Source: a virus (lineage: Duplodnaviria; Caudoviricetes). Taken from it: a DNA stretch of 64,000 bases. Both the position numbers and the translations under genes were made by a program. The stretch covers positions 5,610 through 69,609 of IMG/VR virus record IMGVR_UViG_3300042431_000676; one strand, 5' to 3'. The notes beneath the pieces were generated by a model. It ran no database searches. It worked only from the letters and a program-made list of their open reading frames with translations, and was not told the DNA's origin. Shown piece after piece: positions 70 to 18,708 of this stretch; the first letter of the stretch is position 1, and each line of letters opens with the position of its first letter.

Positions 70-210
70 CATCTGTGTATGTGAATGTGTGGAGTAAGCA
101 GATAGGACACACACCAAACCCTAATGGTTTATGGCGGAAAAATAAATTTCCAAAATAGGGGAAAATCAATAGTTAAGATAACTTGACAGCTTGGAAAGAC
201 AAGCATTTTT
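70..210 (+). ncRNA. Unclassified structured RNA candidate upstream of tmRNA
   Basis: No ORF; serial hairpins tgtgtg/cacaca, aaacc/ggttt, ggaaa/tttcc, agtta/taact, gcttg-gaaaga-caagc; possible cccta(119-123)/taggg(156-160) pairing. Confidence 0.35.
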
Positions 211-4269: not shown

Positions 4270-6381
4270 ATGAATCAACAATCTACATGGATATATGATG
4301 AAGAATCATATCCTAATTTATTTCTACTATCTGCTAAAAATCCTTTTACAAAGGAAAGAAAGAAATTTCAAATCAGTTGTTTAGCAGATGAAAGAGGTGA
4401 TTTAGCAAAATGGTTATTGAATGATGTAGAAAATATGATTGGATTTAATAATTTATTCTATGATTATCCTGTTTTACATCATCTTATTACTAAATGTATG
4501 AATATGTCAGCACAAGATGCTTGTCTTTCTATATTTAAGTTTGGTGATAAAAAAATTAAAACACAAGGTAGTGGATTCAGTAAAGCAACTACTCCATTAA
4601 GAAAGCAAATTGACTTATTCAAAATTAATCATTTTGATAATAAGGCAAAAATGACTTCTTTAAAACTTTTACAATTTAACTTGAGATTGAATAATATACA
4701 AGAGTTACCATATCCTGTAGGAACATATTTAACAAGAGAAGAAATTTACAAAGTTATTGAGTATTGTGATAATGATGTTGATGCTACAGAATTAACCTTT
4801 TTCAAAACTCTACCTGGAATTGAATTAAGAGAGGTACTTTCACCTAAATATAACATTGATTTTACAAACTTCAATGATGTTAAAATAGGAGAACATATTT
4901 TTATTAGTAAGATTATCCAGAAAGCAGGGGAACATCTTGTTTATACAGAGTTTGAAACTCAATCAGGAGGAATCAGAAAACTACCAAGAAATACTATTCG
5001 AGAAACAATAAATATTGGAGATACTATTCTCCCTTTTATTGTGTTCAGAGAAGAACCATTTCAAAAAATTCTTAATTGGTTTAAAAGTAAAACTATCAAA
5101 GAATTAAATGGAGTATTTAGTAAAATTCCTTTTGATGATTTGAAATCATTAGAACCCTATTATTTTGTTCATAAAACTGTTGGGAAGCAGAAAAATTTGA
5201 ATATTGTATATAAAGGTTTTCAATATGATTTTGGAGTTGGAGGTATTCATGGTTCAATTGATGCAGGTTGTTATACACCAGCAGAAGATGAATTGATTGT
5301 TGATATAGATGTAGCTGGATATTATCCAAGTATGTCTGAAAAATTCAATTTTGAACCTGAACATCTTAAAGGTGTTTATGCCGAAGTACATAAAGAAATT
5401 AAAGAAGAACGAAAACTATATCCAAAGAAAACTCCTGAAAACACATCAATGAAATTAGCAGGGAATGGTTCTTATGGTAAGGGAGGTAGTGAATTTAGTC
5501 CTTTATGTGATAAGCAATATGTAGTACAAACTTGTGTAAATGGTCAATTACTTTTATGTATGTTAGCTGAAACATTGACAATAGAATTATCTTTCTATGA
5601 AATGTTACAGATTAATACTGATGGTTTGACTATGAAGATTAAGAAAAAAGATTTAGAATTGTTCAGATTAATCTGTAAGAGATGGGAATCTTTAACAGGT
5701 TTAATTTTAGAAGAAGCATTTTATTCTAAAATGGTAATAAGTAATGTAAATAATTATCTTGCAATTTATGACTATGGTGGTGTCAAAAGGAAAGGTACTT
5801 ATGAATATGAACTTGAATTACATAAGAACTTTTCTATGTTAGTGATTCCAAAAGCTCTTGAAGCCTATTTTGTTCATGGAATAGATGTTCAAACTTTTAT
5901 TTACAATCATACAGATTTATATGACTTTTTTAAAAGAACTAAAGTTAATAAAACTGATAGACTTTTGAGTGTAGTATATGATGAAGATGGTAATTCAATA
6001 TCTGATAACGAGATTCAGAGAATTACAAGATATTTAATAACAGGGGAAGTAGTATATACTAAAGAAACTAAAAAATATCATAATGTAGGTCAAGGTATAT
6101 CACTAATAAAACAAATGCCCCCTATAGAACCTAAAGATAGTAAGAAATTGAGAGATGCTTATTCTTTTGCTACTGTTGAACAAGGTTATGAGGGGAGTTT
6201 TGAAGATTTTAAACAACTGGTGAAAAAAGTAAGACATAATAATTATGAAGCTGGTTTTCTTTGTACTGTTATCAATCAAATGATTACAGATGAAGAAATA
6301 AAGAAAATTATTTATTATCCTTATTACATAGCAGAAGTTTATAAAATCATTAATGTTATTGAGAAAAATAATGGGATTTAA
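4270..6381 (+). CDS. polB: DNA polymerase family B, crAss-like type
   Basis: Exonuclease motifs YDEES, GFNNLFYD, YCDND; polymerase motifs DIDVAGYYPS, KLAGNGSYGK, INTDG. Confidence 0.92.
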   Translation: MNQQSTWIYDEESYPNLFLLSAKNPFTKERKKFQISCLADERGDLAKWLLNDVENMIGFNNLFYDYPVLHHLITKCMNMSAQDACLSIFKFGDKKIKTQGSGFSKATTPLRKQIDLFKINHFDNKAKMTSLKLLQFNLRLNNIQELPYPVGTYLTREEIYKVIEYCDNDVDATELTFFKTLPGIELREVLSPKYNIDFTNFNDVKIGEHIFISKIIQKAGEHLVYTEFETQSGGIRKLPRNTIRETINIGDTILPFIVFREEPFQKILNWFKSKTIKELNGVFSKIPFDDLKSLEPYYFVHKTVGKQKNLNIVYKGFQYDFGVGGIHGSIDAGCYTPAEDELIVDIDVAGYYPSMSEKFNFEPEHLKGVYAEVHKEIKEERKLYPKKTPENTSMKLAGNGSYGKGGSEFSPLCDKQYVVQTCVNGQLLLCMLAETLTIELSFYEMLQINTDGLTMKIKKKDLELFRLICKRWESLTGLILEEAFYSKMVISNVNNYLAIYDYGGVKRKGTYEYELELHKNFSMLVIPKALEAYFVHGIDVQTFIYNHTDLYDFFKRTKVNKTDRLLSVVYDEDGNSISDNEIQRITRYLITGEVVYTKETKKYHNVGQGISLIKQMPPIEPKDSKKLRDAYSFATVEQGYEGSFEDFKQLVKKVRHNNYEAGFLCTVINQMITDEEIKKIIYYPYYIAEVYKIINVIEKNNGI

Positions 6382-6586
6382 TTTTGAATTACTTGGTCCA
6401 ATTGTTGTATTTGATGCTAAATCATTGAGTATGATAATTAGTGAATTGTATGATATAGAAGTATATCCTTTACAAATCATTTCTGATAAAACACATTCAA
6501 TATTTCAAAATATGAATTTACCTGATAATCTTAAAGCAGAAATTATAATCTTACCTTTTAGGTATAAAAAAAAGTTTTTAACATGA
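6371..6586 (+). CDS. Hypothetical protein
   Basis: Overlapping start/stop with both neighbours. Confidence 0.55.
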   Translation: MGFNFELLGPIVVFDAKSLSMIISELYDIEVYPLQIISDKTHSIFQNMNLPDNLKAEIIILPFRYKKKFLT

Positions 6587-7842
6587 AAGAAGTTTTAAAA
6601 AAGTTAAATTTGCTACTTAAAAAACACAATTCTATTTTAGATTGTGTAGATGATGTTTTAGCATTAAGAGAAGCATTAACAACAGAAGAAGATGTAACAA
6701 TCTTTGTTAATAAAGTCAGAGCTATTGTACAAAAAGAAGCTACTCAAGCAGTTATAAATGCAGGAGGGAGAGGTCTTGTGGCTATGGCTACTGGTAGTGG
6801 AAAAAGTAAAGTTGCTATTGATTTGTTAAAGCATTACAATCCTCAAGGTTCTAAATATGACAATGTTTTAGTTGTACCAACAGAGAAATTAAGAGATGAA
6901 AATTGGAAAGAAGAATTTAGTAAATGGAAAGGATTATCTCTATATGATAAAACTGAAAAACTTTGTTATGCTTCTGGTTCTAAAATTGAAGATTTTGATT
7001 TTAATACTTGTGTTCTTGATGAGTGTCATAATATGACTGAATTAGCATCTGAATTGTTTAGTAACAATCATATTGAAAATGTTATAGCTTTAACAGCTAC
7101 TGTACCAAATGATGAAGAAAAATTACTTATTTTTCAAAGATTGGGTATTCATGTTGTTTATAGTCTAACATTAGATAATGCTGTTAAGTTAGGATTTGTT
7201 GCTCCATACAAGATTACTGTTGTTCATACAAAATTAGACAATGTTATTAAAAATGTTCAATCTGGTAGTAAAGATAAACCATTCTTTCAGACAGAGTTAG
7301 CTAAATATAACTATTTATCTACTTTATGTCTTACAAGACCTGGACAAATTTCTACTTTTAACAGAATGAGATTTATTTATAATCTTGAAAGTAAATTCAT
7401 TGCTGCTCAATATATTCTAAATAATCATATTAATAAAGAGGACAGAACTCTGATATTTTGTGGTAGTATAGAAAAAGCAGAGAAAATTTGTAAAGAAACT
7501 TTCCACTCTAAATCAGGAGATACTTTTTATAATGCTTTTAAAAAAGATGAAATTAAAAAATTATCTTGTGTGAAAGCTATCAATGAAGGTCATAATTTTA
7601 TTGGATTAGATGGAGGATTAATTCTTCAACTTAATTCAAAAGAAAAAGATTTGATTCAAAGAATAGGAAGATTGATTAGATTTAGACCTGGACATGAAGC
7701 TCATATTTGGATAATTGTCTGTGATGAAACACAAGATGAGGTATGGTCTAATACAGCATTAGCTAATTTTGACCAATCTAAAATAGAGCATATTAGTTAT
7801 GAATCTTTAAAACAAAAAAGTAATGAATGTAAGATTGTATAA
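6583..7842 (+). CDS. SF2 (DExH) helicase
   Basis: MATGSGKS, LDECH, LTAT, NEGHN, IQRIGRLIR. Confidence 0.9.
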   Translation: MKEVLKKLNLLLKKHNSILDCVDDVLALREALTTEEDVTIFVNKVRAIVQKEATQAVINAGGRGLVAMATGSGKSKVAIDLLKHYNPQGSKYDNVLVVPTEKLRDENWKEEFSKWKGLSLYDKTEKLCYASGSKIEDFDFNTCVLDECHNMTELASELFSNNHIENVIALTATVPNDEEKLLIFQRLGIHVVYSLTLDNAVKLGFVAPYKITVVHTKLDNVIKNVQSGSKDKPFFQTELAKYNYLSTLCLTRPGQISTFNRMRFIYNLESKFIAAQYILNNHINKEDRTLIFCGSIEKAEKICKETFHSKSGDTFYNAFKKDEIKKLSCVKAINEGHNFIGLDGGLILQLNSKEKDLIQRIGRLIRFRPGHEAHIWIIVCDETQDEVWSNTALANFDQSKIEHISYESLKQKSNECKIV

Positions 7843-10638: not shown

Positions 10639-10995
10639 ATGTCAGTAGAACAAGAAGTTAAAAAAGATATTACTGTATCAGCAGTATTAGCTTTATTAGA
10701 TGAAGGTAAAAGCAGAGAAGAAATTGCTGCTCATTTCGGAGAAACTGTAAGTGCTATGAAAGCAACTGTATGGCAACATCCAAAATTGAAAAATCGTAAA
10801 GCAAAAAAACAATTTGCTATCAACTTAATTGATGATACAGATGGTGAAGCAAATACTACTCAAGAAGTAGCTTTTGAAGAAGAAGCTGTACAAGAAGTAA
10901 TTGATACAGTTGAAGAGAATCAAGATGATGTAATTGTAGGTGAAACAGCAGAAGAAGCTGTTACTGCTCCTACAAGTGCTAATGGTACTTGGTAA
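10639..10995 (+). CDS. HTH-like protein with acidic tail
   Basis: LLDEGKSREEIAAHFG helix-turn-helix-like segment; INLIDDT motif; acidic C-terminus ending TW. Confidence 0.6.
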   Translation: MSVEQEVKKDITVSAVLALLDEGKSREEIAAHFGETVSAMKATVWQHPKLKNRKAKKQFAINLIDDTDGEANTTQEVAFEEEAVQEVIDTVEENQDDVIVGETAEEAVTAPTSANGTW

Positions 10996-11026: not shown

Positions 11027-11785
11027 ATGACTAAAAACATTTTCGCAGTTAATGATACAGATGAATCATTAAAAAGTAAAGCATCAGGTAAATTTGGTTT
11101 AAATCAAGGTTTTATCTCAAAGTTTGAATTTATTACTGATGGTGGAGCAAATAATGGTCCAGCAAATGCAGTAGATATTTGGTTCAAAGTAGATGAAAAA
11201 GAATACAGAAGAAGATTGTATGAAGATACAGGAGCTTTATTTGGTAAAAATAATACTAAAGTAAATCCTGGTGAGGCTGGATATGAAGATTTGTATTTTG
11301 ATTCTATGGGTCAAAAAGTTGCTGTTATCAAACATTGTTTAAAAGCAGTAGGTGTAGTACAAACTCAAATTGATGCTGTAGTTGCAACTATCAATCCTGC
11401 TGATATTGTTGCTGGTATTAAATCTTTAGTAGGTCTTGTTCCTGCTGATTTTGCTACAAAACCTGTAGATGTATTCTTGGAATATCAATGGCAAATTTCA
11501 GAAGGTCAGGATAGAACTTATCTTCAAGTACCTAAAAATATGACTGGTGGTTATTTCACTTGTCCTGCACAAGTTGGTGTTTGGTTAGAAAAAAGAGGAG
11601 AAGATGGTTCTCTTACTTATGTAAATCAAAATGGTCAAGTACATCCTATTGATAAAGATAAAAACTTTATGGAAGGATTTAAAGCTAATCAACAAATTGA
11701 AGGTCAAGAGACAGCAAATAATACTTTAGCTCAAGCAGCTAATATGCAACCTGGAAATGGTGCTGCTCAAAAATCTACTTGGTAG
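11027..11785 (+). CDS. Putative single-stranded DNA-binding protein
   Basis: Lies between the Sak4-like ATPase and primase; beta-rich N-terminus, flexible tail ending in an aromatic residue; inference. Confidence 0.5.
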   Translation: MTKNIFAVNDTDESLKSKASGKFGLNQGFISKFEFITDGGANNGPANAVDIWFKVDEKEYRRRLYEDTGALFGKNNTKVNPGEAGYEDLYFDSMGQKVAVIKHCLKAVGVVQTQIDAVVATINPADIVAGIKSLVGLVPADFATKPVDVFLEYQWQISEGQDRTYLQVPKNMTGGYFTCPAQVGVWLEKRGEDGSLTYVNQNGQVHPIDKDKNFMEGFKANQQIEGQETANNTLAQAANMQPGNGAAQKSTW

Positions 11786-11840: not shown

Positions 11841-12875
11841 ATGAATAAGAATGTTTTTACATCTGACAATACTGATAGAAGAGGTTTTATTAATCAAAAT
11901 GTTATTCTTGAATATGTTACAGAAGAAGAGATTTTTGAATTAGTTTTTGGTTTTCAACCAGAAGAATATAGTTATGTTACTTCTCCTTTTAGAAATGATA
12001 GAAATCCAGGTTGTTGGTTTGAAAGAACTACATCTCATACTGGAAAATTAAGATTTATTGATTATGCTAATAGCAGAGTTAATAAACCTATGGATTGTTT
12101 TGATGCTGTACAGCAATACTTTAAAATTTCTAATTTCTACCTTACACTTGAATATGTGTATAACAGACTAATAAAGAATAAGAATGTAATTGCAGAAAAA
12201 AGAATCCAACATATCATACAAAGAAAAGAAGTAATAATTAATTTTGATTCAAGACCATTTTTAAAAAAAGATGGTGTATTTTGGGAAAATAGATATGGAA
12301 TAACTAAAGAGAATTTGATAGAAGATAAAGTTTTTGCGATTAACAAATATCATATATCAAATTCAAAAAAAGGAGATTTCAGTAGTAGATGTTATGATAT
12401 TTGCTATGGATATACAGATTTTAATAATGGTAGAAAAAAACTTTATTTTCCTTATAGAGAAGGTAAAGGTAGATTTGTTTCTACTTGTACAAAAGATGAT
12501 ATTGGTGGTTTAAATAAATTACCTCCTTTTGGAAATCAATTAATTATTACTAAATCATATAAGGACTGGAGAGTTCTTATAAATAATGGTAAATATGCAA
12601 TATGGTTTCAGAATGAAGGTATGATACCAGATTCTACAATTTTAATTCCTATAATTAAAAGATTTAATAAAGTTATTGTATGGTTTGATAATGATACTCA
12701 AGGGATTGAGAGTTCTCAAAAAATCAGTAATTTAATCAATTCTTATTTTCCTAATAAATGTAATTCTTTGTGGCTACCAGAAAAACTAAATGTTATTGGT
12801 ATATCAGACCCTTCTGATTTATTACACAGAAAAGGAAAAGAATCTTTAGAAGAGTTTTTAATCAAATTCACATGA
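11841..12875 (+). CDS. dnaG: DNA primase, DnaG/TOPRIM type
   Basis: SPFRNDRNPGC N-terminal domain, IITKSYKD, WFDNDTQG, SDPSD. Confidence 0.85.
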   Translation: MNKNVFTSDNTDRRGFINQNVILEYVTEEEIFELVFGFQPEEYSYVTSPFRNDRNPGCWFERTTSHTGKLRFIDYANSRVNKPMDCFDAVQQYFKISNFYLTLEYVYNRLIKNKNVIAEKRIQHIIQRKEVIINFDSRPFLKKDGVFWENRYGITKENLIEDKVFAINKYHISNSKKGDFSSRCYDICYGYTDFNNGRKKLYFPYREGKGRFVSTCTKDDIGGLNKLPPFGNQLIITKSYKDWRVLINNGKYAIWFQNEGMIPDSTILIPIIKRFNKVIVWFDNDTQGIESSQKISNLINSYFPNKCNSLWLPEKLNVIGISDPSDLLHRKGKESLEEFLIKFT

Positions 12876-13621
12876 AACCCACAGACAAAATTCATTTTTC
12901 TTGGCTTCCCTTATTAACAGGGTTGTTAAATCAAGAAGAAATGTTAAGATTAAATCAAGAAGTATTACCTACTTCTATATATTACCCAGAAAAACAGAAT
13001 ATTTTTAGAGTGTTTCAAAAACCTGTTTCAGAAATCAAAGTTGTTATCTTGGGTCAAGACCCATATCCTACAAAAGGAAATGCAAATGGATTAGCATTTG
13101 CTGTAAATTCTGATGTAAAAGTTCCTGTAAGTTTAAAAAATATTTATAAAGAGTTAGAAAATGAAAAATTGTTAAATCAAACATTATCTCATACTTTAAA
13201 TGAATATAATACTGAATGGAAAACTTTAGAACATTGGGAACAACAAGGTGTATTTTTACTAAATACAGCTTTGACAGTTGAATCAGGAAAACCTGGAAGT
13301 CATCTTAAATATTGGGAAGATTTTACAAAGAAAGTTATTTGGTATATTGCTTCCACTAATCCATGTATATGGTTATTGTGGGGAAAGAAAGCACAAATGT
13401 TTATTTCAAATATGCCAAAAAAAACACTCTTTGATGTAAAAAATTATAGTAAAGAAACTATAAAAGATGTTCCTAATAGTCCATATATGAACTATATTTT
13501 AAGAGCAGCACATCCAGCAGCAGAAGCATATTCTTCAAATGCTGGTTTTTTTGGTTGTAATCATTTCAGTTATGTTAATACAATATTAGAGAAAAAATCT
13601 CTAAACAAAATCAATTGGTAA
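12872..13621 (+). CDS. ung: Uracil-DNA glycosylase family 1
   Basis: VVILGQDPYP, GLAF, QGVFLLNTALTV, LWG, HPAA, GFFGCNHF. Confidence 0.95.
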   Translation: MKPTDKIHFSWLPLLTGLLNQEEMLRLNQEVLPTSIYYPEKQNIFRVFQKPVSEIKVVILGQDPYPTKGNANGLAFAVNSDVKVPVSLKNIYKELENEKLLNQTLSHTLNEYNTEWKTLEHWEQQGVFLLNTALTVESGKPGSHLKYWEDFTKKVIWYIASTNPCIWLLWGKKAQMFISNMPKKTLFDVKNYSKETIKDVPNSPYMNYILRAAHPAAEAYSSNAGFFGCNHFSYVNTILEKKSLNKINW

Positions 13622-13641: not shown

Positions 13642-14514
13642 ATGAGTACACAAACAAGTACAGCAAGAGTTATTACACTTTATGCTACAAAAGGAGCAAA
13701 AAAAGCAAAATTGGAAACAGAAGTTTCAACTTGGGGTGAATTAAAATCTCTGATTAAAAGTGAAGGTTATGACCTTGACAAATTACATGCTACAGAAAAC
13801 ATTAACAAAACAGACCTTGTTAATGATGCAGCAGTATTACCAGCAGGTGATTTTACTGTTTTTATGAGACCTAAACAAGTTAAATCTGGTGGTAGAGGAG
13901 ATGGTTTATCTTATAAAGATATTAAAGCTGTTATCAAAGATGATTTTACTTCTTTTAAAGAAGCAGCAGATGCTCACTATAATCAAGAAAAAAACTATAC
14001 TACAAAAGGTACTGAAATCTTGAGAGAGTTATTAAACACTTTTGTTGCTCCTTCTGGTGCTGCAAAAGCAGATGTTAAAGAAGAAGTTGCTCCTGTAGCT
14101 ACTGAAACTACTACAGTAACAGAAACTCCTTCTACTCCTGTAAGAACTATTACAAATGCTGATAGAGTTGAACAAGTTGAAACTTTATTAAAAGAAATTT
14201 GTGATAATACAGAAAATGAAGATGTTTCTGATAGAGCAAATGAAATTCTTGATGATTATTTACCTGGTTTAAAAGAAGAAGTTGAAAATGATGATACTGC
14301 TACTGTAACAACTGTTGCAGATGTAGTAGCTTCTGTTGCTGCTTCAAAAGATAATGAATCTCCTGAAGATGAAGGTAGAAGAATTGCAAGAGAAAAAGCT
14401 GAAAAAGAAGAGCAAGAAAAAATTGCTACTGAAAAAGCTGAAAAAGAAGAACAAAAAAGACTTGAAAAAGAAGAAGATGACAGATTAGCTGCTGAAGCTA
14501 AAATGTTTGGATAA
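13642..14514 (+). CDS. Ubiquitin-like (beta-grasp) precursor with C-terminal extension
   Basis: Residues 9-84 show a Ubl-like strand/helix pattern ending FTVFMRPKQVKSGG (GG at 13888-13893); directly upstream of E2/JAB/E1 genes. Confidence 0.65.
   Translation: MSTQTSTARVITLYATKGAKKAKLETEVSTWGELKSLIKSEGYDLDKLHATENINKTDLVNDAAVLPAGDFTVFMRPKQVKSGGRGDGLSYKDIKAVIKDDFTSFKEAADAHYNQEKNYTTKGTEILRELLNTFVAPSGAAKADVKEEVAPVATETTTVTETPSTPVRTITNADRVEQVETLLKEICDNTENEDVSDRANEILDDYLPGLKEEVENDDTATVTTVADVVASVAASKDNESPEDEGRRIAREKAEKEEQEKIATEKAEKEEQKRLEKEEDDRLAAEAKMFG
14383..14460 (+). repeat. 39-nt tandem duplication encoding IAxEKAEKEEQ
   Basis: gaaaaagctgaaaaagaaga(g/a)caa at 14392 and 14431. Confidence 0.7.
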
Positions 14515-14532: not shown

Positions 14533-14565
14533 AAAAAGCTCTTTACATAAGTAAAGAGCTTTTTT
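14533..14565 (+). terminator. Rho-independent terminator after the Ubl gene
   Basis: aaaaagctctttac-ataa-gtaaagagcttttt perfect stem with T-run. Confidence 0.85.
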
Positions 14566-14579
14566 AATTACTTCAAAAA

Positions 14580-15836
14580 ATGGATTTAAAAATTAATAAA
14601 TCATCTAATAAGTTTCAAAACTATATTAGTTCAGCAAGAATATCAGGATTAACCAGAAATAGAAATTGGTTAAAAAAGATGATTGATAAAGGTAAAATAT
14701 GCTATATTAGTTCAAATGATAGACCTGAAATTCTGCATAAAAGAAACTATGCTATTTTTACAGAACAACTTTTTGAATTAATTACTGTTTTTGAAAGAAA
14801 GTTTGTAGATAAGTGGGATATTCATCTAAATAATAGAAGAATAAGTGATAAAAATTACTATGAAATAAGTTTTATTTTTCATTATCCTAAATTAGAAATT
14901 ACAAATAGTAGTGAACAATCAAGAAATCTATTAGATTTAGTAGTTGTATTACCTGTTACTTTTAGTGTTGATAATAATTGTATTTATACTAAAAGAGTAC
15001 AAGGTACAAGATTAACATTAGTACAGGATGAATGGAATAGAGGATATATGCATAGTCATCTACCTGGTATATCAAAAATTACTGGTTTTAGTGAATGTTT
15101 AACTACAAATAACTTTTGTATTGGTTCAGAAGATTTATCAGAATTAGATATTGAATTATCTGCTGAATTTGATTCAGATAAATTTGAATTAATGCTTTAT
15201 ACTATTGATTCTCTTGTTGCTTGGGAAAGTTTAGAAGGAGGTCCTCATTTTAGAATAGGAGAAATAACAGTAGAATATGCAGCTATAAGAGTTACTACTC
15301 AAACATCTGATATTATAGGTATTTATAGAGAATTTCAAAATTATGAATTATCTGTTTCACAAAAACTACCTTTTAATTTTGTATATATGGATAATATATA
15401 TAAAATTAAAAAAGATTCTGTTTTTACAGAATATTTAAGAGAAGCATTTTTATCTAATGAAAATCTTAAAGATTATATTGTAAAAGTTGTTTGCAAAAAA
15501 GGAAGTGATGGTGAATTTTACACATATCCTGAAATAGGACAAATGATTTCTGGTCCACAATTAATCACAAATAGAATAAAAGAACAAGGTTCTGGTGAAA
15601 TGCCTTTCCTATATATTCAAGGTAAGAAATTATCTTTCAATATATTACCTATTGAACAAATAACAACAATTGATATTTCCGAATATGGAATTTATCCTAA
15701 TTTTTTAGATTATGTCTGTAAACAACTCGAATCCGAAATTTACAAAGCCTGTGTTAGAGGTAGCGGAATTAACTACATTGAAACTTCCAGTAATTATGTC
15801 AGAAGAGATTCTGAACAAAATCAAGTACCTTTGTAA
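14580..15836 (+). CDS. Prokaryotic E2-like (UBC-fold) protein
   Basis: YMHSHLP followed by NFCIG (candidate catalytic Cys at 15117), parallel to the HPN...C signature of E2 enzymes; context between Ubl and JAB. Confidence 0.6.
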   Translation: MDLKINKSSNKFQNYISSARISGLTRNRNWLKKMIDKGKICYISSNDRPEILHKRNYAIFTEQLFELITVFERKFVDKWDIHLNNRRISDKNYYEISFIFHYPKLEITNSSEQSRNLLDLVVVLPVTFSVDNNCIYTKRVQGTRLTLVQDEWNRGYMHSHLPGISKITGFSECLTTNNFCIGSEDLSELDIELSAEFDSDKFELMLYTIDSLVAWESLEGGPHFRIGEITVEYAAIRVTTQTSDIIGIYREFQNYELSVSQKLPFNFVYMDNIYKIKKDSVFTEYLREAFLSNENLKDYIVKVVCKKGSDGEFYTYPEIGQMISGPQLITNRIKEQGSGEMPFLYIQGKKLSFNILPIEQITTIDISEYGIYPNFLDYVCKQLESEIYKACVRGSGINYIETSSNYVRRDSEQNQVPL

Positions 15837-16968
15837 AAATATAAACAAAGATGAATGGTCTGGTGCTTTATTCTACTCTATTGAAGGTAGTATTAAAGAC
15901 CCACTAACATTCAAAATAAAACTGGAAGATATTTTACCATTAGATAAAGGAACATCAGCTTATACAGAATATGAGCTTGATGATAGATACCTTGATTATC
16001 TAATGGAAGATGAAAAAAGAATGGATTGGTATGTAGGTCATATTCATAGTCATAATACTATGGCTGTGTTTTTCTCTGGTACTGATATGGCTGAATTAAA
16101 TGATAATTCTCCATCACACAACTTTTATTTATCATTAATTGTTAATAATTATATGGATTTTATGGCTAAAGTTGCTTTTGTAGCAAGTTTAGAACAAGAA
16201 ATTAAAGAAATTCCATATTTAGCAAATGATGAAGATGGAACTAAATACATAATTGATAGACCAAATATTACTTTGAAAAAAGATAAAATGTTTGTCTATG
16301 ATTGTGAAATTATTTCTCCATTTGAACAAGTAATTGTGGAAGAGGGATTTGATAATAGAGTTAAGGAAATTATGAAACCTAAACCTATTAAACAATTTAC
16401 TCCTCACACATATCCTGCTGTTAATACAGCATTTAGTAATGGTAAATGGATTAATGGTAAATTTGTTCCTAATACTCCTACTGCTATTCCAGTAGTAAAT
16501 AATTTAGAAAATGCTAAATTAGCTAACAAAATCAAGCATTATAAAATAGATGAAAGTAAATTATCAAAAAGAGGTAAAAAAATAAAAGATATTGCTTCTA
16601 TGATTGATTTTAGAACTTTTGATGATTTATCAGAAATTGATGAATTAAGTCCAATTGATACATTCTTGGTAGAGTTAATGAAATTTACTACTCCTATTGA
16701 ACCTGATGAAAATCTTGAAGATGCTTTAGTTTTATTAGAAGATTTAGAAGTACATGCTTATCAAATTGCTTCCTCTGTTATTGAAAATTACACATTTTTG
16801 TATGACAAACATTTTCCTGATTCTACTGATGAAGAATTTATTGAAGATACATATACTGTAATTGATTTATTAGAAGACGAAGTTATGCAATTTCCATTTA
16901 TTAATGTAACAATTGAAGCTATTAAAGCTATGATTGTAGAATTTGAGAAAAATGACACAACAGTATAA
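15712..16968 (+). CDS. JAB/MPN+ (JAMM) metalloprotease
   Basis: EWSG glutamate and HSHNTMAVFFSGTD, an exact HxHx7SxxD JAMM motif (16045-16086). Confidence 0.9.
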   Translation: MSVNNSNPKFTKPVLEVAELTTLKLPVIMSEEILNKIKYLCKNINKDEWSGALFYSIEGSIKDPLTFKIKLEDILPLDKGTSAYTEYELDDRYLDYLMEDEKRMDWYVGHIHSHNTMAVFFSGTDMAELNDNSPSHNFYLSLIVNNYMDFMAKVAFVASLEQEIKEIPYLANDEDGTKYIIDRPNITLKKDKMFVYDCEIISPFEQVIVEEGFDNRVKEIMKPKPIKQFTPHTYPAVNTAFSNGKWINGKFVPNTPTAIPVVNNLENAKLANKIKHYKIDESKLSKRGKKIKDIASMIDFRTFDDLSEIDELSPIDTFLVELMKFTTPIEPDENLEDALVLLEDLEVHAYQIASSVIENYTFLYDKHFPDSTDEEFIEDTYTVIDLLEDEVMQFPFINVTIEAIKAMIVEFEKNDTTV

Positions 16969-17629
16969 TAGATTTAAAGATGCCCCTTGGTTTCCAAAAG
17001 AAAATGAAACTGTAATGGTAGGTGGAGCAGGAGGAATTTCCTCTTGGCTCACATTATTTCTTGCAAGAGCAGGATTTAAACCAATTGTATATGACTTTGA
17101 TATTATTGAAGAACATAATACAGGAGGTCAATTATTTAGACTTTCAGATGTAGGGAAACATAAAGTTTCTGCCTTATCTGAAATTATTAAGGAATTTGCT
17201 AATGATTCAATGTCAGGATTTAACAATAGAATAGATGAAAACTCTCCAACTCACTATTTTATGTTTTCTGGTTTTGACAATATGTTAGCAAGAAAAAATA
17301 TGTTTGAAAACTGGAAAAGAAGTATTGAAAATTGTGCAGTAACACCTATTTTAATTGATGGTAGATTAGAAATGGAACAATTGCAAATTTTCTGTGTAAC
17401 TCCAGACAGAATTGCAGATTATGAAAAAACATTATTTACTGATGAAGAAGTTGAAGATGCACCTTGCACAATGAAACAAACTTCACATGCAGCAGCTATG
17501 ATAGCTACTTTAATGACTGCTTTTTTCACTAATCACATGACAAACATATATGAAAGAGAAGTTGTGAGAGATGTTCCCTTTTATCACGAGTTCTTTATTC
17601 CTTTAGCTTTAACCACTAATAAGTTTTAA
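16952..17629 (+). CDS. ThiF/MoeB/E1-like adenylyltransferase
   Basis: VMVGGAGGISSW nucleotide loop, YDFDIIEEHNTGGQ, GKHKV, FDNMLAR, IDGR, candidate catalytic Cys in APCTMK. Confidence 0.9.
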   Translation: MTQQYNRFKDAPWFPKENETVMVGGAGGISSWLTLFLARAGFKPIVYDFDIIEEHNTGGQLFRLSDVGKHKVSALSEIIKEFANDSMSGFNNRIDENSPTHYFMFSGFDNMLARKNMFENWKRSIENCAVTPILIDGRLEMEQLQIFCVTPDRIADYEKTLFTDEEVEDAPCTMKQTSHAAAMIATLMTAFFTNHMTNIYEREVVRDVPFYHEFFIPLALTTNKF

Positions 17630-17631
17630 AT

Positions 17632-18708
17632 ATGTTACAATTAACTGAAACTTATAGTAGTGAGTTCTCTGGTAATGAGTTTAAAATTGGTTCATCAGCT
17701 ACTTCTTATTTTATACCTATAATTAATTGTCATAGAGAAGGTTCTCGACATCAAAGAATTTATGAAGGAGACTTTATAATTTATAATAGACCAGCATTAA
17801 ATAAAAATTCACCAAAAAAATTTAATTTAAGAGATTTTCTTGGAATGATAAATGAATCTGTTGGTTTATATCCTTTTAATTTAGGTGTAGGAGAAGAAAA
17901 GATAATAATTCATGTAGCAAAAGGTTATATAGTTAATGAAAAAGATGAACTTCTTATGGTATTGACTACTAAACCTGATAGATTAAGTTTACATTATCAA
18001 TCAAGGTATTCAAATGTTTCAATTCCTAAAGAAAATGCTAAACATTTAACTTTATTAATTTCTACTGAATTACTAACTAATCCTGTATATTCAAATTTCT
18101 ATAAAAAATTAGAAAAAGAATATATTTTAGATGCTTACAAAGCTGAAATTCCAGTAGTATTTACCACAACTTCTAAAATTGAAAAATTAACTTATTCTAA
18201 TGAGTTTGAATTGAAATTCAATACTGTAGATGAATTACAAAATCATTTAAGAGATAATGTAGGTAATATTATGTTTAAAAGTAATGAACAATTCAAAACT
18301 TTTAATCCTGGAATAGGTAGTAAAATTGAGGATAGACAAAGAAAATTTGTTCCTATTAAAACTGATGAGGTTATATGGGAAGAAGAAATTCCTAAAATGG
18401 AAGGTATTGTAGCTCAAATGAGAAGAAGAGGTGCTATTGACCCTATTAATCCTATTAGTGCTGATTATCTTAATTCTATTAATATAGAAGAATCAAGAAG
18501 ATTGATAAATGAGAATTTAATTAATCCTTCTACTCTTCTGAATAGTTTTACTGATTCTTATAATGAATATCCAGTAACTCCAGCAGAAGCATTTGTTAAT
18601 AGTGTTTTAGGAAATGAACCTTTAGATGAACCAACTACAAGAAGAAGAACTGTAATCAATTTAATTGATGATACAGAAGAGCCACAAGTTGAAGATTTAC
18701 CCTTCTAA
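17632..18708 (+). CDS. Hypothetical protein coupled to E1, with disordered acidic tail ending EDLPF
   Basis: Starts 2 nt after the E1 stop; C-terminal VINLIDDTEEPQVEDLPF. Confidence 0.7.
   Translation: MLQLTETYSSEFSGNEFKIGSSATSYFIPIINCHREGSRHQRIYEGDFIIYNRPALNKNSPKKFNLRDFLGMINESVGLYPFNLGVGEEKIIIHVAKGYIVNEKDELLMVLTTKPDRLSLHYQSRYSNVSIPKENAKHLTLLISTELLTNPVYSNFYKKLEKEYILDAYKAEIPVVFTTTSKIEKLTYSNEFELKFNTVDELQNHLRDNVGNIMFKSNEQFKTFNPGIGSKIEDRQRKFVPIKTDEVIWEEEIPKMEGIVAQMRRRGAIDPINPISADYLNSINIEESRRLINENLINPSTLLNSFTDSYNEYPVTPAEAFVNSVLGNEPLDEPTTRRRTVINLIDDTEEPQVEDLPF

Follow-up and report, generated by a model that had tools for sequence, protein, structure and literature searches.

A candidate ubiquitin-like fusion precursor encoded beside JAB, E1-like and E2-like proteins in the replication module of Flavobacterium and crAss-like phages

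The DNA analysed here (hereafter the window) is a stretch of 64,000 nucleotides (nt) of a virus of the Caudoviricetes (Duplodnaviria), positions 5,610 to 69,609 of the IMG/VR virus record IMGVR_UViG_3300042431_000676. On its plus strand, an open reading frame (ORF) at 13642-14514 encodes a protein of 290 amino acids (aa), which begins with a ubiquitin-like (Ubl) domain and runs on for 207 residues past a conserved glycine, G83 (codon 13888-13890; the codon of R85 starts at 13894). Genes for an E2-like protein, a JAB/JAMM metalloprotease and an E1-like enzyme follow on the same strand, and we consider here whether the 290-aa product is a Ubl precursor that would be matured by the metalloprotease. 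The Ubl domain with its tail occupies residues 1-83 (13642-13890; the fold itself approximately residues 4-83), as delimited by an AlphaFold2 (AF2) model, VIA-align and Foldseek comparisons and the invariance of K81 and G83. The predicted processing site lies between G83 and G84 within K81-S82-G83-G84 (13882-13893), at the end of the conservation window 79-83. The C-terminal extension, residues 84-290 (13891-14511; 206 aa if counted after G84), comprises a conserved three-helix domain (residues 91-133, 13912-14040; N118 92% and T120 97% conserved), a disordered Thr/Pro/Ala-rich linker (residues 140-167, 14059-14142) with a predicted local distance difference test (pLDDT) score below 50 and low conservation and occupancy, an acidic helical region (residues 172-237, 14155-14352) and a long Lys/Glu-rich helix (residues 241-290, 14362-14511) with two copies of EKAEKEEQ (residues 251 and 264) and a conserved C-terminal motif LAxEAxxxF/G. 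A first-pass annotation, made from the letters alone, had described a Ubl with an internal di-glycine and a 206-aa extension made up of a helical domain, a Thr/Pro/Ala linker, acidic helices and EKAEKEEQ repeats; its coordinates and residue counts agree with ours, and each of these parts was recovered in the model and the sequence.

The AF2 model of the 290-aa protein was built from a homolog alignment of 32 rows and reached a mean pLDDT of 79.4. It places a beta-beta-alpha-beta-beta unit at residues 9-77 (strands 9-15, 20-26, 48-52 and 71-77, helix 31-40), then a loose tail (78-90), the three helices 91-104, 106-113 and 124-133, the acidic helices 172-189, 193-216 and 225-237 and finally a single long helix, 241-288. 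A wide VIA-align comparison listed 50 matches, 49 of which cover only model residues ~1-86, and by title nearly all of these are ubiquitin-superfold or beta-grasp proteins (UBX, FAT10, UBL, ISG15, SUMO and MoaD, with a few DIX and PB1 domains); the top match has a Z score of 9.3 and a root mean square deviation of 2.2 Å over 73 aligned residues. Foldseek against the Protein Data Bank (PDB) found the same fold, with template modelling (TM) scores of 0.63-0.73 by target and a best expect value (E) of 2.6e-3, so that none passed at 1e-3. According to the model, the N-terminal unit of the protein is thus a ubiquitin fold. Alignments with mature modifiers stop at model residues 81-83 (Smt3 aligned to its residue 98, ubiquitin to residue 75), and G83 therefore takes the position of the reactive Gly in ubiquitin-type modifiers. 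The relationship was seen in structure comparison: a PDB sequence search with the Ubl profile gave no significant match, Pfam searches with the whole protein and with the extension alone returned sub-threshold noise only (Arm_3), leaving the three-helix domain without a Pfam family, and an ESM Atlas search with the extension gave no usable match by features, the structure matches all having TM scores below 0.5.

To this fold we could add a sharply delimited pattern of conservation. A word-indexed search found 42 relatives of 189-315 aa, and when 1.84 billion cluster representatives were searched with a profile, 2184 matched at E<=1e-3, far above chance expectation, and 1413 of them also at E<=1e-10, the 150 matches listed all measuring 152-315 aa. 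We aligned 182 sequences, i.e. the window protein and 181 of the 183 relatives fetched (a fragment, P0182, and a protein with a frameshifted tail, P0024, were left out). No position besides K81 and G83 has the same residue in all 182, residues 79-83 form the most conserved five-residue window of the whole protein, and at position 84 conservation drops to 35%, with Ala the commonest residue and Leu, Gly, Ser, Asn, Ile, Val and others also found after the Gly. The first-pass annotation had proposed that homolog conservation should peak at KSG(G), and the alignment bears out the peak and places a steep fall directly behind it; the di-glycine itself has to be given up as a family motif, the conserved element being K-S-G and the second Gly a local feature of this phage. 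Since only G83, and not the di-glycine, is conserved, any cut should fall after G83; of the two cleavage positions proposed earlier, after G83 or after G84, invariance favours the first and the 35% conservation of position 84 speaks against the second.

None of the 183 fetched FpV4-type proteins (named after the Flavobacterium phage FpV4, see below) and none of 33 complete related ORFs in viral contigs end at the Gly; in these 33 ORFs 122-206 residues follow it, three further ORFs leave their contigs, and RP[KV][QK][TV]KSG recurs at every one of the 36 loci, FpV4 included. A search limited to shorter proteins gave two matches, the fragment P0182 and P0183, and no Gly-terminated form; P0183 (152 aa) lacks the three-helix domain and still has 73 residues past the Gly. 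At the far end of the protein, the block of residues 281-290 is conserved as well (1.92 bits, occupancy 0.99). One candidate for a Ubl with a different extension (L031, 5980-6414), in which a primase-like sequence follows KSG and the ORF leaves the contig end, was set aside and not used; a chimeric assembly is the probable cause, a rearrangement a possible one. Every relative that we found comes from a phage genome or a viral contig. When 185,579 species genomes were scanned with a pattern, none of 21 candidate stretches was confirmed, which is weak evidence of absence from bacteria, as the pattern fits FpV4-type sequences only.

The same gene was found in a second group of phages. Foldseek against viral models matched proteins of the uncultured crAss-like phages cr111_1, cr126_1 and cr106_1, and tblastn, started from a distant family member and then from a Kolpuevirus homolog, yielded 45 records, among them crAss001, DAC15/17 and the PhiCrAssBcn series; all those assigned to an order are Crassvirales, Steigviridae. 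In crAss001 the genes run Gp80 (primase), Gp79 (225 aa, Ubl and extension), Gp78, Gp77 (“metalloprotease domain”), Gp76 (“ThiF”), Gp75 and Gp74 (uracil-DNA glycosylase), so that the cassette of Ubl, E2-like, JAB and E1 genes (Gp79-Gp76) lies in the replication module of Steigviridae in the same order as in the window. In Gp79 the bond that corresponds to G83-G84 joins G90 and A91. BLASTP of the window proteins against crAss001 gave E values of 2e-28 for JAB, 1e-37 for E1, 4e-7 for the E2-like protein and 2e-4 for the Ubl. All 12 crAss-like Ubl proteins that we aligned keep the Gly (…KKIKSG, KIRSG, KVSSG), which is followed by A, T or K, and all 12 have a KNFTQCKTxDL block, the equivalent of the three-helix domain, together with a C-terminal S-E-I-x-x-M-F peptide. 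In the cr126_1 homolog (L042, 2501-3427), residues 158-220 of the extension are an inserted C-terminal domain of ribosomal protein L7/L12 (PF00542, E 5e-12, 46.4 bits with the cut-off at 25.9), and hence the extension can carry cargo domains.

In one of these phages the two parts are encoded separately. The Ubl ORF of cr106_1 has 92 aa and ends …KKIKSG-K-F-stop, two codons past the Gly; an HNH endonuclease ORF begins 1 nt past this stop, and 15 nt after the HNH ORF starts a 130-aa ORF that aligns with the extension from the first post-Gly residue through the C-terminal motif. The JAB, E1 and E2-like genes are kept downstream. A self-splicing (group I) intron was rejected as an unlikely cause of the interruption, as there were no Rfam matches at E<=1 and only 1 and 15 nt lie outside the HNH ORF. 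Five further clusters at 90% identity, of 91-96 aa and 56-85% identical to the cr106_1 Ubl, on contigs of up to 43 kb, likewise stop two residues past the Gly (KSGKC twice, KSGKF, KSGKI and KSGIL). At the level of gene structure, the split shows that the two halves need no covalent join and that evolution has tolerated a boundary at the conserved Gly; once two residues are trimmed off, the split form would yield the same mature Ubl as the fused one. We regard the split as supportive, not decisive, for a precursor of two separable parts. The first-pass proposal that the C-terminal part may be a second protein sits well with the division of cr106_1 into a Ubl gene and an extension gene. Free-standing HNH endonuclease genes occur around crAss-like Ubl genes in L039 (cr106_1), 6281-6796, and L046 (cr112_1), 1904-2452; one splits the Ubl gene past the conserved Gly and another is inserted between the genes for primase and Ubl.

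Downstream of the Ubl gene, the ORF at 14580-15836 (plus strand) encodes a protein of 418 aa that we assign with moderate confidence as E2-like, on weak evidence from an alignment of 22 sequences, an AF2 model and a wide VIA-align comparison. Across the 22 sequences S159-H160-L161, F179-C180-x-G182 and W215-E216-S217 are invariant. In the model (pLDDT 77), residues ~50-230 form a helix, a four-strand meander, a motif loop with C180 and further helices, an order of elements that is the order of the UBC fold. Most of the 50 VIA-align matches listed are E2, UEV or RWD domains by title (Z 4.1-5.9), headed by the TSG101 UEV domain (5.9), E2S (5.2) and Ubc13 (5.2). There was no Pfam or PDB sequence match, and Foldseek against the PDB gave no match at E<=1e-3.

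The next ORF (15712-16968, plus strand) encodes an N-terminal JAB/JAMM metalloprotease domain of ~160 aa and a C-terminal domain of unknown fold. All 21 aligned sequences share E48, H112-S113-H114, S122 and D125, which in their spacing (H112-S-H114-x7-S122-x2-D125) match exactly the JAMM motif E-Xn-H-S/T-H-X7-S-X2-D as defined in the abstract of PMC300881, a complete catalytic set. A JAB model of PADLOC gave E 4.5e-6. Searched against PDB sequences, its profile gave nothing significant, the only JAMM chain touched being CsRpn11 at E 0.99. The annotated JAB ORF starts 125 nt before the E2-like ORF stops (15712-15836), and in related phages the two likewise overlap. PHROGs divides the protein between two families, phrog_21448 (residues 1-110) and phrog_16107 (110-418), from which it follows that the JAB gene is called in two pieces in some phage records.

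The third enzyme gene (16943-17629, plus strand) encodes an E1-like adenylating enzyme of the ThiF family with 228 aa, matched by Pfam ThiF with 46.1 bits against a cut-off of 28.1. All 18 aligned sequences share GGAGGIGSW, D51xD53, D112-N113...R117 and C175, the last of which is, judging from this conservation, a candidate thioester cysteine. The closest solved sequences are MccB (best, E 4e-8), the SUMO E1 and UBA5, and the best PADLOC model is the E1-E2 type of the cyclic-oligonucleotide-based antiphage signalling system (CBASS; E 8.9e-8). Homologs of this enzyme occur in 79 of 50,697 phage records, 29 from Flavobacterium phages, ~45 from crAss-like phages and 5 distant ones from Xanthomonas and Erwinia phages. 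Among the distant relatives, PV764602.1, PV764603.1 and OQ603353.1 (~29% identity, E ~1e-10) belong to ~228-kb Xanthomonas jumbo phages and one Erwinia phage.

In the phage collection, all 29 best matches of the 290-aa protein came from Flavobacterium psychrophilum phages of the type of FpV4, which is classed in Fipvunavirus and has an 88-kb genome, at 87-92% aa identity. The gene sits in the replication region, with a primase and a uracil-DNA glycosylase (UDG) gene upstream, DNA polymerase further upstream in FpV4, and genes for a PD-(D/E)XK-like and an HU-like DNA-binding protein downstream. The order orf252, primase, UDG, Ubl, E2-like, JAB, E1, orf358 is kept wherever the contig extends far enough among 35 IMG/VR contigs retrieved with the Ubl profile; as these represent one phage lineage, this synteny alone says little. 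The last member, a plus-strand ORF of 358 aa after E1 (17632-18708), is syntenic in the FpV4-like group and of unknown function; no Pfam family covers it, BLASTP found no significant similarity to crAss001 Gp75, whose gene has the equivalent place in crAss001, and it could be a lineage-specific partner or target. Directly 3' of the Ubl gene and before the E2-like gene lies a perfect 14-bp hairpin with a U run (14533-14564, plus strand), with a folding energy of -17 kcal/mol and a z score of -6.6 (none of 200 shuffles was as good), missed by a consensus terminator scan. This terminator- or attenuator-like element may lift expression of the Ubl precursor above that of the enzymes. Furthermore, the three ORFs immediately upstream of the Ubl gene all end in Trp (10639-10995, …ANGTW; 11027-11785, …QKSTW; 12872-13621, …NKINW), i.e. 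three of the 42 ORFs on the plus strand, compared with a Trp frequency of 1.1%, and in related loci Trp is the last residue of 29 of 35 homologs of orf252, while 30 of 35 UDG homologs have a terminal Trp, Phe or Tyr. The terminal aromatic residue may be a shared C-terminal docking residue of the replication module.

Taken together, we read the 290-aa product as a phage Ubl precursor that is matured by a JAB cut after G83, and from the comparative evidence we put the probability of this reading at about 0.6. E1 enzymes adenylate a free C-terminal carboxylate; because 207 residues follow G83, the internal Gly must first be exposed. In the proposed sequence of events, the JAMM protease would bind the beta-grasp domain and cut the G83-G84 peptide bond, the ThiF-like E1 would adenylate G83 and probably form a thioester on Cys175, and the Ubl would be passed to Cys180 of the E2-like protein and attached to lysines of phage or host proteins in the replication phase; JAB may also take the Ubl off again. 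The released 207-aa fragment would be a separate protein, made 1:1 with the Ubl, and its conserved acidic/aromatic C-terminal peptide may serve as a docking tail. The first-pass annotation further raised the speculative idea of cleavage as a switch for the system. Maturation by JAB is supported indirectly, by the internal invariant Gly, the conservation cliff behind it, the full JAMM site and the adjacent E1 and E2-like genes. More tentatively, and at rather less than even odds, we suggest that FpV4-like and Steigviridae phages run their own Ubl conjugation from the replication module with a modifier that is a true ubiquitin-fusion precursor, split by JAB, whose second protein docks by its C-terminal peptide, possibly at the replisome.

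Several observations weigh against JAB maturation of this precursor. All evidence for cleavage, adenylation and conjugation is comparative. K81, invariant in the alignment of 182, is missing in some crAss-like homologs (KVSSG, KIESG), the E2-like assignment rests on Z scores of 5-6, under the tool's caution line of 8, and Pfam Prok-JAB scored 16.6 bits, below its cut-off of 25. The split form is rare in IMG/VR: with P0201 and P0195 as starting sequences, 67 loci were found, of which 63 are fused, one, the record of cr106_1 itself, is split, and the rest are too short or misregistered. Moreover, L048, 98% identical to the short form P0201, is fused, and some of the short forms may therefore be errors. 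The same split would also be tolerable for a protein that is never cleaved and whose two parts come together again non-covalently, and the split NrdA of phage Aeh1 is reported to be an example of such reassembling halves. The extension also evolves faster than the Ubl: the ratio of nonsynonymous to synonymous substitution rates is 0.34 for the extension and 0.14 for the Ubl in comparison with FpV4, and ~1.0 and 0.17, respectively, in comparison with a 70%-identical contig (L002); all these ratios come from small, noisy counts and partly from stretches that align poorly. Such evolution would also suit a mere pro-peptide or linker. A predicted complex of JAB (residues 1-165) with Zn and the Ubl (residues 1-135) gave a median score of 0.39, with one control at 0.25; the result is non-specific and favours neither side.

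Among other explanations, the one that survives best is that the protein is never cut and that its ubiquitin fold is a permanent N-terminal docking domain of the UBX or UBL kind, which would bring the helical part to JAB, E1 and the E2-like protein, these acting on another substrate. Non-conjugated UBX and UBL domains are among the best structural matches, nearly all genomes keep the two parts fused, and the PADLOC matches of E1 and JAB are models of the CBASS type, in which the substrate is a C-terminus that is not a Ubl; even so, we hold a domain that stays uncut to be unlikely, as it leaves unexplained why the sole invariant residues lie in a flexible tail, why this tail ends in Gly with a cliff after it, and why cr106_1 is split exactly there and leaves a near-terminal Gly on the Ubl. 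A requirement for a conserved terminal Gly is not known for adaptor domains of the UBX and UBL kind. We consider it quite improbable that the Ubl, released by JAB or another protease, is a sulfur carrier with a ThiS/MoaD/CysO-like thiocarboxylate instead of a modifier. The E1 is of the short ThiF/MoeB type with 228 aa and is annotated in GenBank as a thiamine biosynthesis protein, MoaD is among the fold matches, and ThiS/MoaD operons with JAB and E1 are described by Iyer et al. 2006, but we saw no rhodanese, cysteine desulfurase or sulfur-acceptor enzyme in the cassette, the neighbouring E2-like protein is conserved and has an invariant Cys, and the cassette is part of a lytic phage replication module. 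Scarcely credible is activation by E1 of the far C-terminus (G290) with a non-reactive internal Gly, as by Cap2 with CD-NTase tails or by MccB, the best PDB sequence match of our E1, with its peptide, for although the protein ends in Gly (…AKMFG) and its last 10 residues are conserved, that Gly is not (a loose E[AF]x(2-8)G near the end fits no more than 78 of 162 sequences, the last residue of close relatives is N, S or E, and crAss-like homologs end in MFDFVD, LFGGWAK, LRALAMR etc.), and what is conserved is an amphipathic peptide, no terminal residue.

Should these phages indeed run their own Ubl conjugation from a fusion precursor, this precursor would be without an earlier counterpart among the viruses of bacteria, and so would the complete set of Ubl, E1, E2 and deubiquitinase (DUB). 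Work on Ubl conjugation in prokaryotes has until now dealt with the defence of bacteria against phages (Bil, type II CBASS); here a full candidate set of enzymes together with the modifier is carried by lytic phages, and host-type defence chemistry would be put to the phage's use. The cassette is conserved between Flavobacterium phages of the kind used in aquaculture phage therapy and crAss001-type phages, which belong to one of the most abundant phage groups in the human gut. Existing annotations name these genes only as hypothetical, metalloprotease-domain and thiamine-biosynthesis proteins. A literature search on crAss-like phages or Crassvirales and ubiquitin returned nothing relevant by title, and we know of no paper on such a system. 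Neither the crAss001 paper nor Yutin et al. 2021 mentions ubiquitin, ThiF or metalloprotease in its main text, and that of Yutin et al. also lacks JAB, MPN and E1-like; the supplements may hold annotations. The long conserved extension past the reactive Gly makes the system directly testable. Furthermore, because of the Lys at the second position ahead of the Gly, tryptic digestion should mark modified lysines with a Ser-Gly remnant, and the targets could be read from ordinary proteomics of infected cells.

The mechanism that we propose is borrowed from known systems, since pre-processing of bacterial and archaeal Ubls by JAB proteases has precedent. In eukaryotes, ubiquitin is fused to ribosomal proteins, and FUBI to S30, so that a reactive Gly is joined to an unrelated protein and a protease gives both products 1:1; the junction is Gly-Gly and is cut by DUBs that are cysteine proteases. 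In the phage protein, in contrast, a single conserved Gly (K-S-G) marks the junction and the putative protease is a JAMM metalloprotease encoded two genes away; the PDB sequence search detected no sequence relationship to the eukaryotic fusions. Another phage protein with a similar layout is the tail assembly protein I of lambda and T1, which has an N-terminal Ubl, a conserved Gly ending the beta-grasp, a linker and a C-terminal domain and lies beside a JAB protein (protein K, JAB and NlpC/P60). Release of the Ubl of lambda protein I by JAB at that Gly was predicted by Iyer et al. 2006. Protein I belongs to tail assembly and has no E1 or E2, whereas the cassette described here lies in a replication module with an E1 and an E2-like protein. 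The ubiquitin operon of Caldiarchaeum subterraneum resembles the cassette in its Ubl, E1, E2 and precursor-maturing Rpn11-type JAMM protease (abstracts of PMC6043591 and PMC5654768), but it is a cellular operon of an archaeon and has a RING E3 in addition. Type II CBASS, with Cap2 (E1-E2) and Cap3 (JAB), provided the best PADLOC matches, and Cap3 trims or reverses C-terminal conjugation; there the substrate is the tail of a CD-NTase and not a beta-grasp protein, and E1 and E2 are fused, whereas here they are separate.

The cassette also resembles the bacterial Bil system (BilABCD), in which Ubl, E2-like, JAB and E1 genes also stand side by side (the E2 match being weak here, Z 5-6) and residues also follow the conserved Gly. 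PADLOC matched only its CBASS-type JAB and E1-E2 models in the window, and the presence of Bil models in PADLOC 2.0 is unconfirmed. In published work, BilC (JAB) cleaves BilA after Gly97 and also a fusion of BilA to green fluorescent protein (GFP), the Bil DUB is likewise reported to cleave Ubl-GFP, and the overhangs of Bil Ubls are given as up to nine residues, or as 2-9 aa. The differences are that the overhang, at most 9 aa there in these sources, amounts here to 122-207 aa with its own conserved domain and C-terminal motif, that Bil is a bacterial anti-phage defence whereas our cassette is found in lytic phage genomes, and that the phage E1 is much shorter with its 228 aa. Bacterial Ubls with extra domains carry them N-terminally, according to the abstract of PMC11601603. 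Phage-borne and with a long overhang, the cassette is not filed as a Bil system, but in the mechanism proposed it works like Bil and like the eukaryotic ubiquitin fusions.

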